Source: Candidatus Paceibacter sp. (GTDB lineage: Bacteria; Patescibacteriota; Patescibacteriia; Magasanikbacterales; UBA922). From it: DNA of 64,000 nt. Position 1 is the first letter of the stretch. Each line of letters starts with the position of its first letter. A model generated the notes under the pieces. That model was not told the DNA's origin. It worked only from the letters and a program-made list of their open reading frames with translations, and made no database searches. The stretch lies in the NCBI GenBank assembly GCA_020725175.1, contig DYFM01000005.1, forward strand, positions 1,855-65,854. The letters are read 5' to 3'. This document shows, in pieces, positions 1,724 through 19,125 of this stretch. A program made the position numbers and the translations under genes.

Positions 1724-2305
1724 ATGGAAGGTATGGAAGTATATATTGATGAATCAGGAATTCATAAATTTTCCGGTTATAGTGTTGTTTGTTTTGTTTA
1801 TGTACAAACTGATGGAGTAAAAGAAGTAGAAAAAGCACTGATAAAAGTTGAAAATTTACTTGGAATTAGAAAGTTTCGTTGGTCCGATTTTGGTTCCAAA
1901 CGAGGATGGGTGGTACGAGAAAGTTTTATTCGTCATATAATACCACTACCGTTTCTTTTCAATATTATATATTTTCAAAACCCTATCGCATTTCATTCTG
2001 CTTTTGAGCATGTTCTACATTCTGTTATTCAGCATGATAGAATAAGGAAAATCATTATTGATGGTAAAAAATCGAGAACGTATTCTCGGCGCATAAAAAA
2101 TGTACTACGTAAACATAACATTTCTGTGAAAAAAGTAGTTATGGCAAATGATGGGGGTACTCCAGGGTTACGATTAGCAGATGCTCTTGCCGGGTTATAT
2201 CGATCACATATGGAGAAACCAACGAGCAAAACAAATGATCTGATAAGTTTAATCACTCGTAACAACAAAAAACCGTCCATTATGGACGGTCAGATTGCCC
2301 GGTAG
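1724..2305 (+). CDS. DUF3800-domain protein
   Basis: N-terminal VYIDESG and C-terminal LRLADALAG motifs are typical of DUF3800. The start lies 4 nt after the translin-like gene. Confidence 0.5.
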   Translation: MEGMEVYIDESGIHKFSGYSVVCFVYVQTDGVKEVEKALIKVENLLGIRKFRWSDFGSKRGWVVRESFIRHIIPLPFLFNIIYFQNPIAFHSAFEHVLHSVIQHDRIRKIIIDGKKSRTYSRRIKNVLRKHNISVKKVVMANDGGTPGLRLADALAGLYRSHMEKPTSKTNDLISLITRNNKKPSIMDGQIAR

Positions 2306-2467
2306 TTTGGAAGTCTTCCAAACTCTCCCCATACGGCGGATTTGTCCCGGGTTCTTGTTCTAGATAAACTATATCATTATTTAAGAAGATTGTCAATCAT
2401 TATGTCTCGATACATGTGCTGTGACTTAGACAATTAGCCAAAACCCTCTATTTCCTAAAATTAGAAA

Positions 2468-7857: not shown

Positions 7858-7883
7858 ATAACGTGCAGGTCGTGGGTTCTTTG
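7858..7883 (+). repeat. Partial duplicate of the tRNA-Thr 3' half (taacgtgcaggtcgtgggttc)
   Basis: A 21-nt exact match to the anticodon-stem-to-T-stem segment of tRNA-Thr lies about 80 bp downstream of the gene. There is no acceptor stem. Confidence 0.5.
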
Positions 7884-8017
7884 AAAATACGAATTCGCCT
7901 CGGGTGGAAATCTATATTCTCGACTCAAAGAAGTTATTCACACGTTTAGACTTTCTAAACGTGTTTTTGTTCTAGGAGAAAAAAGGGAAATGTGGTATAC
8001 TTTGTTTTGTAAATCAA

Positions 8018-8085
8018 AAATCATAAATCATAAATCCAAAGTTGTGTTGTTGATTTTAGATTTATGATTTTAGATTTATGATCTC
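8018..8085. promoter_or_regulatory. Long imperfect inverted repeat immediately upstream of ftsE; candidate operator
   Basis: The arms atcataaatcataaatc and gatttatgattttagatttatgat flank a short spacer. The repeat ends 4 nt before the ftsE start codon. Confidence 0.4.
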
Positions 8086-8769: not shown

Positions 8770-8850
8770 CTAAGTATACTACGTCTGCTAAGTGGCTTAG
8801 TCAACTAAGTCAACTCAGAAAACTCAGATAACTCAGAATCAGAAACAGCT

Positions 8851-9759: not shown

Positions 9760-9830
9760 CTAAGTCTTCTGAGGAGGCTGAGTTTCTGAGTAACTGAGTT
9801 GAAATATTCTTAATTTTAGGTAAAAAAAGT

Positions 9831-10193
9831 ATGGGGGGTACGGCCAATTTTAAGAATTTGTTTGTTTATCAGTGTTCATTCAAAAATGCCCTAGAGATAT
9901 ATCGTTTCTCTCAACAGTTGCCTCAATACCTACGATATGATATTGCAGATGACCTGAGAAGAGCAGCTAGATCAGTCCCTTCCAATATTGCTGAAGGATA
10001 TGGAAGGAATAAATCAAATGCTGATATTGTAAACTTTTTACGAACTTCGTTGGGATCGAATGATGAAGTGGTGTTTAATCTAGAGTTTTTAAAAGGATTA
10101 TCCTTGATTAACGAAGAGCAGTATCAACATTTTACAGGTCAAAGCAAACTTATTGGGTCGGGCTTACAAAAATTAATACAGTCACTTTCCTAG
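9831..10193 (+). CDS. Four-helix-bundle protein (TIGR02436 / 23S rRNA intervening-sequence protein family)
   Basis: NIAEGYGR motif and an overall ~120-aa helical pattern. Confidence 0.65.
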   Translation: MGGTANFKNLFVYQCSFKNALEIYRFSQQLPQYLRYDIADDLRRAARSVPSNIAEGYGRNKSNADIVNFLRTSLGSNDEVVFNLEFLKGLSLINEEQYQHFTGQSKLIGSGLQKLIQSLS

Positions 10194-10308
10194 TTTTTAC
10201 ATTTGTTGATTTTGATAGAAGTCAACAAATATGAAAAACTAAGAGAACATAAAGTTCTTAGTGAACTCAGAAGACCTAGTTTACTCAGGTCACTCAGAAA
10301 ACTCAGAC

Positions 10309-10379: not shown

Positions 10380-10513
10380 CGAGGCTATTTGCTCATCTTT
10401 TTTCAGATTGACAATGGCCTGTAAATATAGTAAACTAATGTCGAAGTTTTTAGTGCGCTAAGTTATCTGAGTAGGCTCAGTCAACTTAGAACTCTTAGAA
10501 AACTCAAAAACAT

Positions 10514-10677
10514 TCGGAAGTAGCTCAGTGGTAGTCCCGACAGTGGTCGGGAGTATATCCTCAAGAGCTATATACGGATGAGAATTACAACATATTCGGA
10601 AGTAGCTCAGTGGTAGTCCCGACAGTGGTCGGGAGTATATCCTCAAGAGCTATATACGGATGAGAATTACAACATAT
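10514..10677 (+). repeat. Two tandem 82-bp units, each beginning with the first ~22 nt of tRNA-Asn
   Basis: catattcggaagtagctcagtggtagtcccgacagtggtcgggagtatatcctcaagagctatatacggatgagaattacaa appears twice with period 82. The third unit is the genuine tRNA gene. Each unit contains the hairpin tcccgac/gtcggga. Confidence 0.75.
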
Positions 10678-11087
10678 TCGGAAGTAGCTCAGTGGTAGAG
10701 CAGTTGGCTGTATATCACGGAATGCGTGTTTTATTACGCATACGACTAGCAGCTCTCGATAGGAATATCGGGATGAAGAACAAGGTGAATTGCTGGAAAC
10801 CCTATCAGGTTATGCTGAGGGTAATCAGCAGCCAAGCCCTATATCTCTACGGAGATCAGTAGGGAAGGTTCAGAGACTATCCTGTAATGGGAGTAGGCTG
10901 GTACATGTATCAGTCGAAGCGCCTTGCACCCCATCGCTTTCGAGCAATCGAAATTTGGCGAGGGTGAAGATATAGTCCACGCTTTCCTGACTATATTGTC
11001 GGGACGATAAACCGTTTCGGTTGTCGCTGGAAACAGGAGATATTACGTGTAACCAATTGGTCGTGGGTTCGAATCCCACCTTCCGAG
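10678..11087 (+). tRNA. tRNA-Asn (anticodon GTT) interrupted by a group I intron; exons 10678-10711 and 11050-11087
   Basis: The exons fold as acceptor TCGGAAG/CTTCCGA with discriminator G, D-arm GCTC AGTGGTA GAGC, anticodon stem GTTGG/CCAAT, and T-arm GTGGG TTCGAAT CCCAC. The anticodon loop becomes CT GTT AA when the exons are joined after U35. U1-A72 with G73 fits Asn identity; Thr-UGU is the alternative if the splice site is two nt upstream. Confidence 0.65.
10712..11049 (+). ncRNA. Group I self-splicing intron in the tRNA-Asn anticodon loop, ~338 nt, no endonuclease ORF
   Basis: The conserved core elements are present: P (aattgctggaaa), Q (aatcagcagc), R (gttcagagacta) and S (aagatatagtcc). 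The 5' exon ends in U and the intron ends in G. Confidence 0.7.
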
Positions 11088-11311
11088 CAAAAAAGGGTGA
11101 GCAGGTTCTAACGAGCCTGTTTTCTTGTATATGGAGCCATTTTTGAGAAGTTCGGAAGTGAGAAAAAAAGCACTAACTATTTTTTGCTTCAAATAAGACA
11201 TACTTAATTTATCTCGGTGACTAGTGTCGGTGGGGTTCGGACTACGTGTACATAATAAACAAAATAAGAGTATCATTACTCTTATTTTGAAAAATCATTG
11301 TTTTGGTTAAT

Positions 11312-12079
11312 TTATGTGACTTTTCTCAGCACTTCCCATCGGTCATTTCCTTGATTTGTGTAAAATCCTATTTTGAGAGTCTCATTAAAAATTCTTTGTA
11401 CAAACTCGTTATACTCATCTGCATTTCTATCAAATCGTGGCATTCCTTGTGGATCTAAATATGTACTCCACAAATCTGCTAATCTTCTAAAAGTATTTAC
11501 ATCAATAAGATGCGCATCACTGCTTATTTGTGCCATATCTATATTTCCATTTCCTCTAACTACATATATTTGCTTTATTGAATTTCTCCCATTTGAAAAA
11601 TGATTATATATATCCGCCAAGGAAAAAGAATATTCAGCGTTGTGGCTATGTAGTACCGCAGAAATTACTTCGTCTCGGTAAACAATGAGTCCGGAGGGCG
11701 TAGTTATTTCAGTTCGTTTCAACGGTGCAGAAATCGGAGCGCTATATTTCTCTCCTTGTATCAGTGGTCCAAGTTTGAGGTTTCCCTCATGATCGGCCAC
11801 TACCGAACAACTAAATTCAGTATCATATGAATCATGCAGGTAACGTAACTCATCAGCAATTCGAGAAAAATCGCTTGTCGGCCCGTATTCTGCAATGTCG
11901 TCGTAGGCCTCATCCATGAAATCTAATGGTCTATCAATGAGAACAGAGCTGGGCAAATTTTCAAAACTGGGGGGGGTTTCCAGAATAGAATGTCTTAATA
12001 GATCGTGTGCATCCACAAGTTGTTCACTTCTTCTATCTCTGGAATCTCCTCCAAATCTCTTTGATTCGGAATATGGCAT
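11312..12079 (-). CDS. Hypothetical protein, no recognisable domain
   Basis: 255-aa ORF flanked by a hairpin terminator at 11265-11290. It is the first gene downstream of the tRNA cluster. Confidence 0.45.
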   Translation of the reverse strand: MPYSESKRFGGDSRDRRSEQLVDAHDLLRHSILETPPSFENLPSSVLIDRPLDFMDEAYDDIAEYGPTSDFSRIADELRYLHDSYDTEFSCSVVADHEGNLKLGPLIQGEKYSAPISAPLKRTEITTPSGLIVYRDEVISAVLHSHNAEYSFSLADIYNHFSNGRNSIKQIYVVRGNGNIDMAQISSDAHLIDVNTFRRLADLWSTYLDPQGMPRFDRNADEYNEFVQRIFNETLKIGFYTNQGNDRWEVLRKVT

Positions 12080-12325
12080 ATGGTTATTTTATGAATTATA
12101 GATTTTGATATGGATAAAATATATCAAATCTTGTTGTTATAGGCAAATTTTTGCACTTGATAAATTTAAGGTAGGTGGATTTACAATCAAAAGATTTTGG
12201 AACTTGTTCCTATATTCGAGCAAACACTCTTCCATACACACTGGTATGGTAAAGACAAAAACATACTCAAAAGAGTATGTTTTTGTTATACTGTACTTGC
12301 TACTTAAACCAGTATTTATTTCTGT

Positions 12326-18096: not shown

Positions 18097-18249
18097 ATCA
18101 AAATATTTGTTGAGAAGTAATAGATAAAAAATGCAGTAACCACACTTCCGCGGTAATCACTCATCAATCAGGACTACTCAGTAAACAAAACCAACTTAAC
18201 TTACTCCAAAAACTTAGCTTACCCAGAGAACTCAGAAAACCCAGTCAAC

Positions 18250-19125
18250 TTAGACTCTCTCCACCCAATGCACATCAACACCAACATCAAGTTCCAAAAA
18301 TACTTTCTTGTTGGTTGCTTGTTCCAGTTCTTTTCTCGCCATTTGACCAATTTCCTTGATTTTACTTCCGCGAGCACCGATAATCATGCGCTTGTATCGC
18401 TCTTCGTTGGTCAAAATCCGAGCAGAAATGACAAAGAGATCTGGTTTTTCCTCAACACTGTCTACCTCAACAGAAATAGAGTAGGGTACTTCCTTATCAA
18501 AAATTGAGAAGGTTTTTTCTCGAATTATTTCAGAAATCCAAAAGTGATGATCTACGTTCGTTAGCTGATCCTCCGGGTAGAGTGGCTCACCTTCAGGAAG
18601 AAGTTCAATAACTTTATCACGCAGTGGCTGTACATGACTGGCTCGAAGCGCAGAAACCGGAAGAACAGCATCAAAATCGTTGCCCCAAAATTCATAATCG
18701 GCTTGAAACGCGCGTTCACTACGAGATAAATCACTTTTGTTAATGACGAGTATTTTAGGTTTTTCCACATGACGAATCATACCATATACTGCTCGTTCTT
18801 CTTGACCTATTTCTCTGGTAGGATCTACGACATATACAATGACATCAATATCTTGCAGTGCCTCGTGAACTTTATTTGTTAGTTTGGCGGTAAGCGGATT
18901 TTTTCTATCTTTAAATACCCCTGGGGTATCCACAAAAATCGCTTGCCCGTGAGGAGTGTTCATGACTCCGTGTATGATATGGCGGGTCATTTGCGCACGA
19001 AAACTAGTGGCAGCAATTTTAGTGCCAACGAGTGTGTTCAATAGGGTAGATTTGCCCACGTTTGACCGACCGACGAGGACGACAAAGCCGGACTTTGGTT
19101 GGGGGGTTGTTTGTTCTTTCTTCAT
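18250..19125 (-). CDS. era: GTPase Era
   Basis: G1 motif GRSNVGKST, G3 DTPG, G4 NKSD, and a C-terminal KH domain. Confidence 0.9.
   Translation of the reverse strand: MKKEQTTPQPKSGFVVLVGRSNVGKSTLLNTLVGTKIAATSFRAQMTRHIIHGVMNTPHGQAIFVDTPGVFKDRKNPLTAKLTNKVHEALQDIDVIVYVVDPTREIGQEERAVYGMIRHVEKPKILVINKSDLSRSERAFQADYEFWGNDFDAVLPVSALRASHVQPLRDKVIELLPEGEPLYPEDQLTNVDHHFWISEIIREKTFSIFDKEVPYSISVEVDSVEEKPDLFVISARILTNEERYKRMIIGARGSKIKEIGQMARKELEQATNKKVFLELDVGVDVHWVERV

Follow-up and report, generated by a model that had tools for sequence, protein, structure and literature searches.

tRNA-Asn genes are classic hot spots for integration. Direct repeats of part of a tRNA gene are said, since a description by Reiter in 1989, to lie at the att sites of integrated phages and islands, and integration in tRNA genes reportedly has a sublocation preference, as surveyed by Williams in 2002. 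In plastid genomes, fragments of tRNA pseudogenes are found at the endpoints of rearrangements, for example those of the cereal plastid DNA inversions. Group I introns at position 35/36 of tRNA-Asn and tRNA-Asp form an experimentally validated class in Patescibacteria, and in vitro self-splicing has been demonstrated for members of this class other than the one described here; neither duplicated exons nor tandem repeats or pseudo-copies are mentioned in that study (Nakagawa et al., 2026, mSystems, PMC13011429). In phage T6, a tandem segmental amplification in the tRNA region is recombination-dependent and driven by the GIY-YIG endonuclease SegB (PMC13096335; SegB in PMC2330249). The amplified T6 unit, of 718 bp, consists of a whole tRNA gene together with segB and is selected for dosage, and its junction lies at a short homology that includes a tRNA 5' end (PMC13096335).

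Here we describe a tandem array of tRNA 5' ends that precedes an intron-containing tRNA-Asn gene within a 64-kb stretch of DNA (the window) from the metagenome-assembled genome (MAG) of an uncultured, ultra-small Magasanikbacteria-like (CPR) bacterium. The intron-containing type of tRNA-Asn is already published (PMC13011429), and the upstream 5'-end array comes in addition to it. The features of the locus, in the order of their coordinates, are:

10408..10436, + strand: sigma-70-like promoter TTGACA-17-TAAACT, 10/12 matches, upstream of the whole array
10449..10507, + strand: CTNAG leader array with a 9-nt period, abutting the first pseudo-unit; a like array lies directly 5' of tRNA-Gln
10514..10595, + strand: pseudo-unit 1, with tRNA-Asn nt 1-21 at 10514-10534, a hairpin at 10535-10552 and an AT-rich tail ending in AT
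10596..10677, + strand: pseudo-unit 2, 100% identical to pseudo-unit 1
10678..10711, + strand: 5' exon of tRNA-Asn(GUU), covering canonical positions 1-35 and opening with the third repeat copy (21 nt)
10712..11049, + strand: group I intron of 338 nt with no ORF, at anticodon-loop position 35/36 (RF00028), its boundaries taken from exon joining and from alignment with the relative L096
11050..11087, + strand: tRNA-Asn 3' exon, positions 36-73, discriminator G, CCA not encoded
11099..11122, + strand: terminator-like hairpin and T-run, 3' of tRNA-Asn

Tandem Repeats Finder reported an 82-bp tandem repeat at 10512-10698 (2.3 copies, 100% matches, 0 indels, score 374), which is the sole long-period tandem repeat in the window. 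The 21-mer TCGGAAGTAGCTCAGTGGTAG, corresponding to tRNA-Asn nt 1-21, spans the acceptor 5' strand, the D-stem 5' strand, the D-loop and the first base of the D-stem 3' strand; it occurs exactly three times in the window (at 10514, 10596 and 10678) with none expected by chance, and a 34-mer of the spacer between the copies, which we call X, occurs exactly twice, also against an expectation of zero. Each 82-bp unit is made up of tRNA-Asn nt 1-21 and the 61-nt X, and the tail of X ends in the same AT that stands, as two leader nucleotides, before the first copy, so that the exact direct repeat is 23 nt, plus X. X carries the hairpin TCCCGAC-AGTG-GTCGGGA, with a 7-bp GC stem (10535-10552 and 10617-10634), and, within the AT-rich tail of pseudo-unit 1, the motif GAGCTAT (10565-10571). 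The third copy, which is incomplete, forms the genuine 5' end of the tRNA-Asn(GUU) gene. Head-to-tail identical copies with 23-nt direct repeats bounding X fit a simple tandem duplication, by slippage or unequal crossover. An earlier sequence-only reading had described two 82-bp units, each with a tRNA 5' end, a hairpin and an AT-rich tail, and had taken the third copy for the real intron-containing tRNA-Asn; Tandem Repeats Finder, the k-mer counts and the joining of the exons all confirm this. Its remark that a 5'-end duplication is unusual for integrative elements is fair, the repeat consisting of tRNA nt 1-21 and two leader nucleotides and not of the 3' part.

No cloverleaf was found by ARAGORN within 10514-10677, and the pseudo-units gave no covariance-model match in Rfam at E values up to 10. 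Other readings of the repeat were rejected: that it is coding (82 is not divisible by 3, and the overlapping minus-strand ORF is without a Pfam match), that it is CRISPR-like (the "spacers" are identical, and cas genes were not found nearby), and that it belongs to a DGR (there is no A-to-N variation, an RT gene was not found nearby, and the nearby PF05635 protein is stand-alone). The gene for this PF05635 protein, a 23S rRNA intervening-sequence protein (Avd-like four-helix bundle), lies at 9831-10193 between ftsX and tRNA-Gln; it is absent from that position in all relatives examined, and CTNAG arrays flank it on both sides.

In the unspliced locus the tRNA is not called by ARAGORN, and when 10678-10711 is joined to 11050-11087 the product is a canonical tRNA-Asn(GUU) that the program accepts. 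The exon/intron junctions are GGCTGT/ATATCA (5') and TACGTG/TAACCA (3'); U35 is the last base of the 5' exon, and G that of the intron. The intron matches RF00028 at 10722-10999 with 76.2 bits (gathering score 50; E=1.4e-17). Compared with the intron of L096, that of the window has an extra hairpin of ~29 nt (ATGCGTG-TTTTAT-TACGCAT) in the P1 loop region, within 10714-10752, and an extension of ~41 nt near its 3' end (about 10999-11040); both introns keep the guide sequence GCAGC, the pairing partner of GCUGU in the 5' exon. Judged by these features, the window gene is a member of the published Patescibacteria class of group I introns at 35/36, its self-splicing being a prediction. The gene looks essential, and it may be the organism's only tRNA-Asn.

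A promoter scan placed + strand sites solely at 10402-10436 and found no -35/-10 pair with 16-18 nt spacing inside 10514-10677. Transcription of tRNA-Asn is presumed to start near 10443. Because the promoter is upstream of the array, a terminator-like hairpin follows the 3' exon, and there is no promoter-like site in the units, the pseudo-units are most simply read as part of a ~235-nt 5' leader of the tRNA-Asn transcript.

Arrays with a CTNAG core, a strict 9-nt period and 5-7 repeats (for example, TCAGAAAAC) are present in the window at 8770-8836, 9760-9800, 10257-10306, 10449-10507 and 18214-18253, and the pattern has 33 matches where 1.3 are expected. They occupy intergenic leaders directly 5' of ftsX, the PF05635 gene, tRNA-Gln and the tRNA-Asn array. 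An array of the same kind precedes tRNA-Gln in a relative with 62% FtsX identity (L097, 5909-5950), and the CTNAG arrays are therefore conserved in the clade. The CTNAG leader abuts the first pseudo-copy exactly as the other CTNAG array abuts tRNA-Gln, which suggests that copy 1 marks where the gene first began and has since been moved upstream.

The neighbourhood of the array consists of housekeeping genes (those for a Mur ligase and a PPIase, folP, ftsE and ftsX). In a collection of 5.8 billion proteins, the nearest relatives of FtsX came from Magasanikbacteria/Patescibacteria MAGs, at no more than 63% identity, and in a genome-contig search with FtsX the closest relatives were 59% identical; the tRNA-Asn locus is absent from the relatives of this second search. 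In the distant relatives L008-L010, the synteny of tRNA-Gly, tRNA-Thr, ftsX and tRNA-Gln is kept, and no tRNA-Asn follows tRNA-Gln. In L096, with an FtsX that is 62% identical, tRNA-Asn(GUU) is likewise split by a group I intron at 35/36, its exons are ~94% identical to those of the window, and its promoter (TTGACT-17-TATAAT) is located 15 nt upstream of the gene. L100 and L101 have an orthologous tRNA-Asn, again with a group I intron at 35/36, with an HNH-like ORF within the intron, and in L100 the promoter TTGACA-17-TATTAT is directly 5' of the gene. The distance from promoter to tRNA-Asn is 15-29 nt in these two unit-free lineages (L096 and L100/L101), and no pseudo-units were seen upstream of tRNA-Asn in either. 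Since both have the intron-containing tRNA-Asn without units, this comparison indicates that the intron-containing gene is ancestral and that the array is lineage-specific and young. The strand of tRNA-Asn relative to tRNA-Gln is opposite in L096 and L100 to that in the window, and the region has therefore been rearranged.

The intron ORF of L100 (5549-5941, minus strand) encodes 130 aa with CxxC...HH...CxxCH motifs and a weak HNH Pfam match (E=0.009), and is likely a homing endonuclease. Just downstream of tRNA-Asn in the window, a 255-aa protein with no Pfam domain is encoded on the minus strand at 11312-12079. Its ~50%-identical homologs in other Patescibacteria (L090-L094) are located beside Bro-N, SocA_Panacea, PemK-toxin and HTH genes, in unrelated surroundings of a mobile or defence-like kind, and there is no tRNA-Asn near them. 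The region 3' of tRNA-Asn may be a variable or mobile island.

Partial tRNA copies were also seen at other tRNA genes. In L107 (4017-4424), two GC-rich palindromes break up a pseudo-5' tRNA-Gln (positions 1 to ~41); next come a 92-aa GIY-YIG ORF (Pfam E=1.5e-15) and an intact tRNA-Gln, and the stop codon of the ORF is inside the regenerated tRNA 5' end; in the sister contig L106 (4115-4194), ftsX is followed directly by tRNA-Gln. The arrangement in L107 is what would be expected if an endonuclease cassette had entered a tRNA gene and restored its 5' part. In the window, L097 and L009, tRNA-Thr(CGU) has a partial copy of its own 3' part within ~80-120 nt downstream. The window fragment comprises an exact 21-nt copy of positions 36-56 (7859-7879), a hairpin-bearing insert and a copy of the acceptor 3' strand (7915-7927), and its boundary at 35/36 is the Patescibacteria intron insertion site; the other fragments are at 4200-4262 in L097 and about 121 nt downstream of tRNA-Thr in L009, and each of the fragments is similar to the tRNA-Thr of its own lineage. 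We also note in the window an Rfam match to DUF3800-II RNA (2288-2361, minus strand; 54.5 bits, gathering score 43.2) and, just upstream of ftsE at 8010-8082, AT-rich inverted and tandem repeats (ATCATAAATC / GATTTATGAT; period 14, 2.3 copies, 100% identical).

All of the data underlying the array are short-read metagenome assemblies. Contig DYGQ01000007.1 (MAG GCA_020724605.1) equals the window except for one SNP over 8.8 kb, and carries the identical 2.3-copy array; the two seem to be separate assemblies of one organism. The SNP, G vs A at 12193, is the sole difference of the window from DYGQ01000007.1 or from the Logan contigs over the 8.8 kb. Two Logan contigs (L006 and L007) end at 12192, one base before it, and both alleles seem to co-occur in some samples. 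The junction of leader, tRNA 5' end and X is seen in an independent Logan k=31 contig from another run (L002, which ends at 10550), and that of X, tRNA 5' end and gene in another independent k=31 contig (L004, which starts at 10638, the equivalent of 10556); the junction from X to the next unit, which is the proof of at least two units, is present solely in the long assemblies. From a de Bruijn graph with at least two units, Logan contigs would be expected to break at 10541 and 10669 and not, as observed, at 10550 and the equivalent of 10556. Because Logan contigs break at polymorphisms, as L006 and L007 do before the known SNP, this suggests that a 5-nt block at 10551-10555 is polymorphic in the Logan sample, where the number of units may differ and may possibly be one. 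In a k-mer analysis, a 2-unit array has no repeated k-mer at k of at least 127 and is thus uniquely resolved; at k of 99 or less, two units are not separable from more, and arrays of three or more units are mutually indistinguishable. That tRNA 5' ends flank at least one X is secure, and a count of exactly two units, coming as it does from short-read metagenome assemblies, is plausible.

We compared X with a range of sequences. It has no further copy elsewhere in the 64-kb window, and blastn-short against ~0.9 Mb of related loci returned nothing. A 20-mer of X had no match in viral contigs (IMG/VR), and in JGI metagenomes it gave only a chance hairpin match in an unrelated GC-rich organism; this query spanned 10535-10554 and overlaps the apparently polymorphic block at 10551-10555. 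BLAST of the locus against a phage collection returned solely the conserved group I core, in Vibrio and Shewanella phages. An unanchored local alignment of X with the intron and the rest of the tRNA-Asn gene was not significant, nor was the comparison with the relatives' promoter/leader sequence (p about 0.1-0.14). After its hairpin, X reads GAGC-T-ATAT-ACGGA-TG...ATTAC...CATA, which is collinear with GAGC...T/ATATCACGGAATG...ATTACGCATAC of the gene across the 5' splice site. Anchoring this alignment gives a p of about 0.02 when shuffles are the control and of 0.055 when random genomic targets are, and a second register is about as good; a relationship between X and the D-stem/5' splice-site sequence of the gene is a possibility.

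In fold predictions, one unit reaches -26.5 kcal/mol and is more stable than its shuffles (z=-3.6); GUAGCUC of the tRNA part and GAGCUAU of X form a stem that encloses the GC hairpin. Once the precursor is spliced, each X is predicted to prefer pairing, through GAGCUAU...CGGAUG, with the next tRNA 5' segment (P=0.75-0.89), and the acceptor 3' strand to pair mostly with the first pseudo-copy. Correct acceptor pairing has a predicted probability of 0.99 in a unit-free precursor, which drops to 0.26, 0.17 and 0.04 when one, two and three units, respectively, are present; these are equilibrium predictions that leave tertiary structure and folding kinetics out of account. Shuffling X lowers the value further, to a mean of 0.03 vs 0.17 for native X. 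Because the pseudo-5' ends are predicted to compete with the true 5' end, these calculations argue that the pseudo-units would more probably be a burden, or at best neutral, than a helper module. The z=-3.6 fold and the better pairing with native than with shuffled X could hint at selection for tolerance or function, and if the units truly impair folding of what may be the sole tRNA-Asn, their persistence in at least two assemblies needs explaining.

We hold, with moderate confidence, that the array is a young, lineage-specific, non-functional structural scar in the leader of an intron-containing tRNA-Asn. One simple duplication cannot give 2.3 copies; a first event would therefore have produced two copies of the first 23 nt (AT plus tRNA nt 1-21; t) around X, and a second would have added a unit. 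In the first step, a single event would have put the 61-nt X between the two copies of t, yielding leader-t-X-t-rest, in which the upstream copy is a dead 5' fragment and the downstream copy runs into the intact gene. Candidates for this event are a partial 5'-end duplication with indels, the loss of most of an upstream tandem gene copy, and a cassette with a replacement 5' end. Because the units are 100% identical, the second t-X unit would then have come from replication slippage or unequal homologous recombination across the 23-nt direct repeats, and we infer that the array is both recent and unstable in copy number. The T6 amplification, with its junction at a tRNA 5' end, is a precedent for tandem amplification of this sort (PMC13096335). 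Given the positions of promoter and terminator, the units would be transcribed in the ~235-nt leader from the 10408-10436 promoter and discarded at the RNase P cut at 10677/10678. Unable to form a tRNA and without a promoter consensus, they would be neutral to mildly deleterious passengers and not a device.

Among other explanations, we regard as unlikely the idea that the array is the footprint of a mobile cassette that inserted into the 5' part of the tRNA gene, with its own 5' copy regenerating the gene and X as a decayed remnant that was later duplicated. The related Magasanikbacteria contig L107, with its pseudo-5' tRNA-Gln, GIY-YIG ORF and intact tRNA-Gln, provides a precedent; in its sister L106, ftsX is followed by tRNA-Gln without a cassette. 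As in L107, a displaced piece of tRNA 5' end stands ahead of the intact gene in the window, and GC hairpins interrupt the pseudo-copies in both; the HNH-like ORF in the tRNA-Asn intron of L100 is also in keeping with a cassette. However, X is only 61 nt long, is without an ORF remnant, and has no similarity to the L107 cassette or to anything else compared; the tRNA-5' copies here are three and identical, whereas the displaced copy in L107 is degenerate; there is no endonuclease or integrase gene near the array and no ORF with a Pfam match in or adjoining the units; and the GIY-YIG protein of L107 has no tblastn match in the window. A wider version, in which the array would be the decayed, re-amplified footprint of a CPR cassette class that enters tRNA 5' parts with a replacement 5' end and leader, and of which the L107 cassette would be an intact example, seems to us quite doubtful. 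We likewise give little credence to a decayed partial gene copy, whereby a ~77 bp stretch (running from 2 leader nt through the 5' exon and ~40 nt into the intron) would have been duplicated in tandem; the upstream copy would then have decayed, gaining a 31-nt hairpin in its D-loop and undergoing several deletions, before being re-duplicated. The collinearity of X with GAGC of the D-stem 3' strand and with the 5' splice-site sequence (anchored p about 0.02 against shuffles) speaks for such a history, but the p of 0.055 against random genomic targets, an alternative register that is about as good, and the lack of significance in unanchored tests weaken the match, and the path demands five or six indels with zero substitutions and with the first 23 nt perfectly preserved.

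That the duplication is an assembly artefact, or that the units are not two in number, is very unlikely. All of the data are from short-read metagenome assemblies, two units are indistinguishable from more at k of 99 or less, the Logan k=31 breaks at 10550 and the equivalent of 10556 agree with polymorphism of a 5-nt block and perhaps with only one unit in the sample concerned, and the 20-mer spanning 10535-10554 did not recover the JGI contig of the organism. Against this, a 2-unit array is uniquely resolved at k of at least 127, two assemblies differing by a SNP both carry it, four long contigs span both flanking genes, and a second unit in an assembly demands real reads over the X-to-t-to-X junction. 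A functional cis-acting leader, with decoy 5' ends or an anti-tRNA regulating folding, RNase P or splicing, or giving rise to tRNA-5'-derived small RNAs, we consider highly improbable. The unit is predicted to be structured (z=-3.6), GAGCUAU...CGGAUG of X is predicted to pair with the next tRNA 5' copy (P=0.75-0.89), and the units, co-transcribed with the tRNA to judge from the promoter position, strongly alter the predicted acceptor pairing; yet L096 and L100/L101 have the same intron-tRNA without units, there is no Rfam match, the 100% identity points to recency and not to maintained function, and the complementarity is trivially explained by the D-stem-like GAGC in X. The tRNA-derived small RNA array proposed by the sequence-only reading is therefore left unsupported, with nothing conserved or Rfam-like in the units and two relatives having the same gene without them. 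Its other proposals, duplicated promoter-leader modules or aborted group I intron mobility, are barely credible as explanations of the array. The tail of X is AT-rich, with TATATA and GAGAAT, and in relatives the promoters are immediately upstream of tRNA-Asn, but X has no -35/-10 pair, the promoter regions of the relatives are not significantly like it (p about 0.1-0.14), and the only good sigma-70-like promoter, at 10408-10436, is upstream of the array and not in a unit. Aborted intron mobility has against it that X matches the exon/intron junction only marginally (p about 0.02-0.05), that unanchored tests give no significance, and that the repeat boundary (position 22/23) is 13 nt away from the insertion site of an intron that has no ORF. 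Retro-homing, which was also suggested, is a mechanism of group II and not of group I introns, and the window intron, again, is without an ORF.

If the array is a duplication scar, it matters little, being another local duplication around a tRNA gene. If instead the cassette class were real, tRNA 5' pseudo-fragments would be a general marker of such insertions in reduced genomes, and the 5'-inserting class would be the mirror image of classical 3'-end att integration. For annotators, the locus means that exact 5'-end decoys can precede tRNA-Asn in Patescibacteria and, together with the intron, confuse both tRNA finders and short-read assemblers. The array, the GIY-YIG case of L107 and the conserved tRNA-Thr 3' pseudo-half suggest that the tRNA genes of Magasanikbacteria are recurrent sites of insertion and rearrangement, and the predicted competition for the acceptor strand offers a natural test case for the effects of a leader on pre-tRNA folding, RNase P cleavage and group I splicing.

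The likeness of the array to the 3'-end att-site repeats of phages and islands is that a tRNA fragment is repeated beside an intact gene. At att sites, however, it is the 3' portion of the tRNA that is repeated, on either side of an integrase element of kb scale, whereas in the window the 5' 21 nt are repeated in tandem around a gene-free X; there is no integrase among the ORFs neighbouring the array, and only 61 nt lie between the repeats. With the T6 amplification the array shares head-to-tail identical units in a tRNA locus, a junction at a short homology involving a tRNA 5' end and, on our reading, dependence on recombination, although its unit, unlike that of T6, is 82 bp and includes no complete gene, and an endonuclease gene was not found nearby. 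The L107 locus, from the same clade and likewise downstream of ftsX, also carries a displaced piece of tRNA 5' end ahead of the complete gene, and GC hairpins in the pseudo-copy; it differs in having a 279-nt endonuclease ORF between the copies and one degenerate pseudo-copy that extends to position ~41, with no tandem repetition. Plastid tRNA pseudogene fragments mark recombination breakpoints, and here tRNA-Asn is inverted relative to tRNA-Gln when compared with L096 and L100, but the plastid case is a different system and nothing found here ties the inversion to the array. The window gene itself belongs to the Patescibacteria 35/36 intron class, to which the upstream array adds a further, lineage-specific feature.
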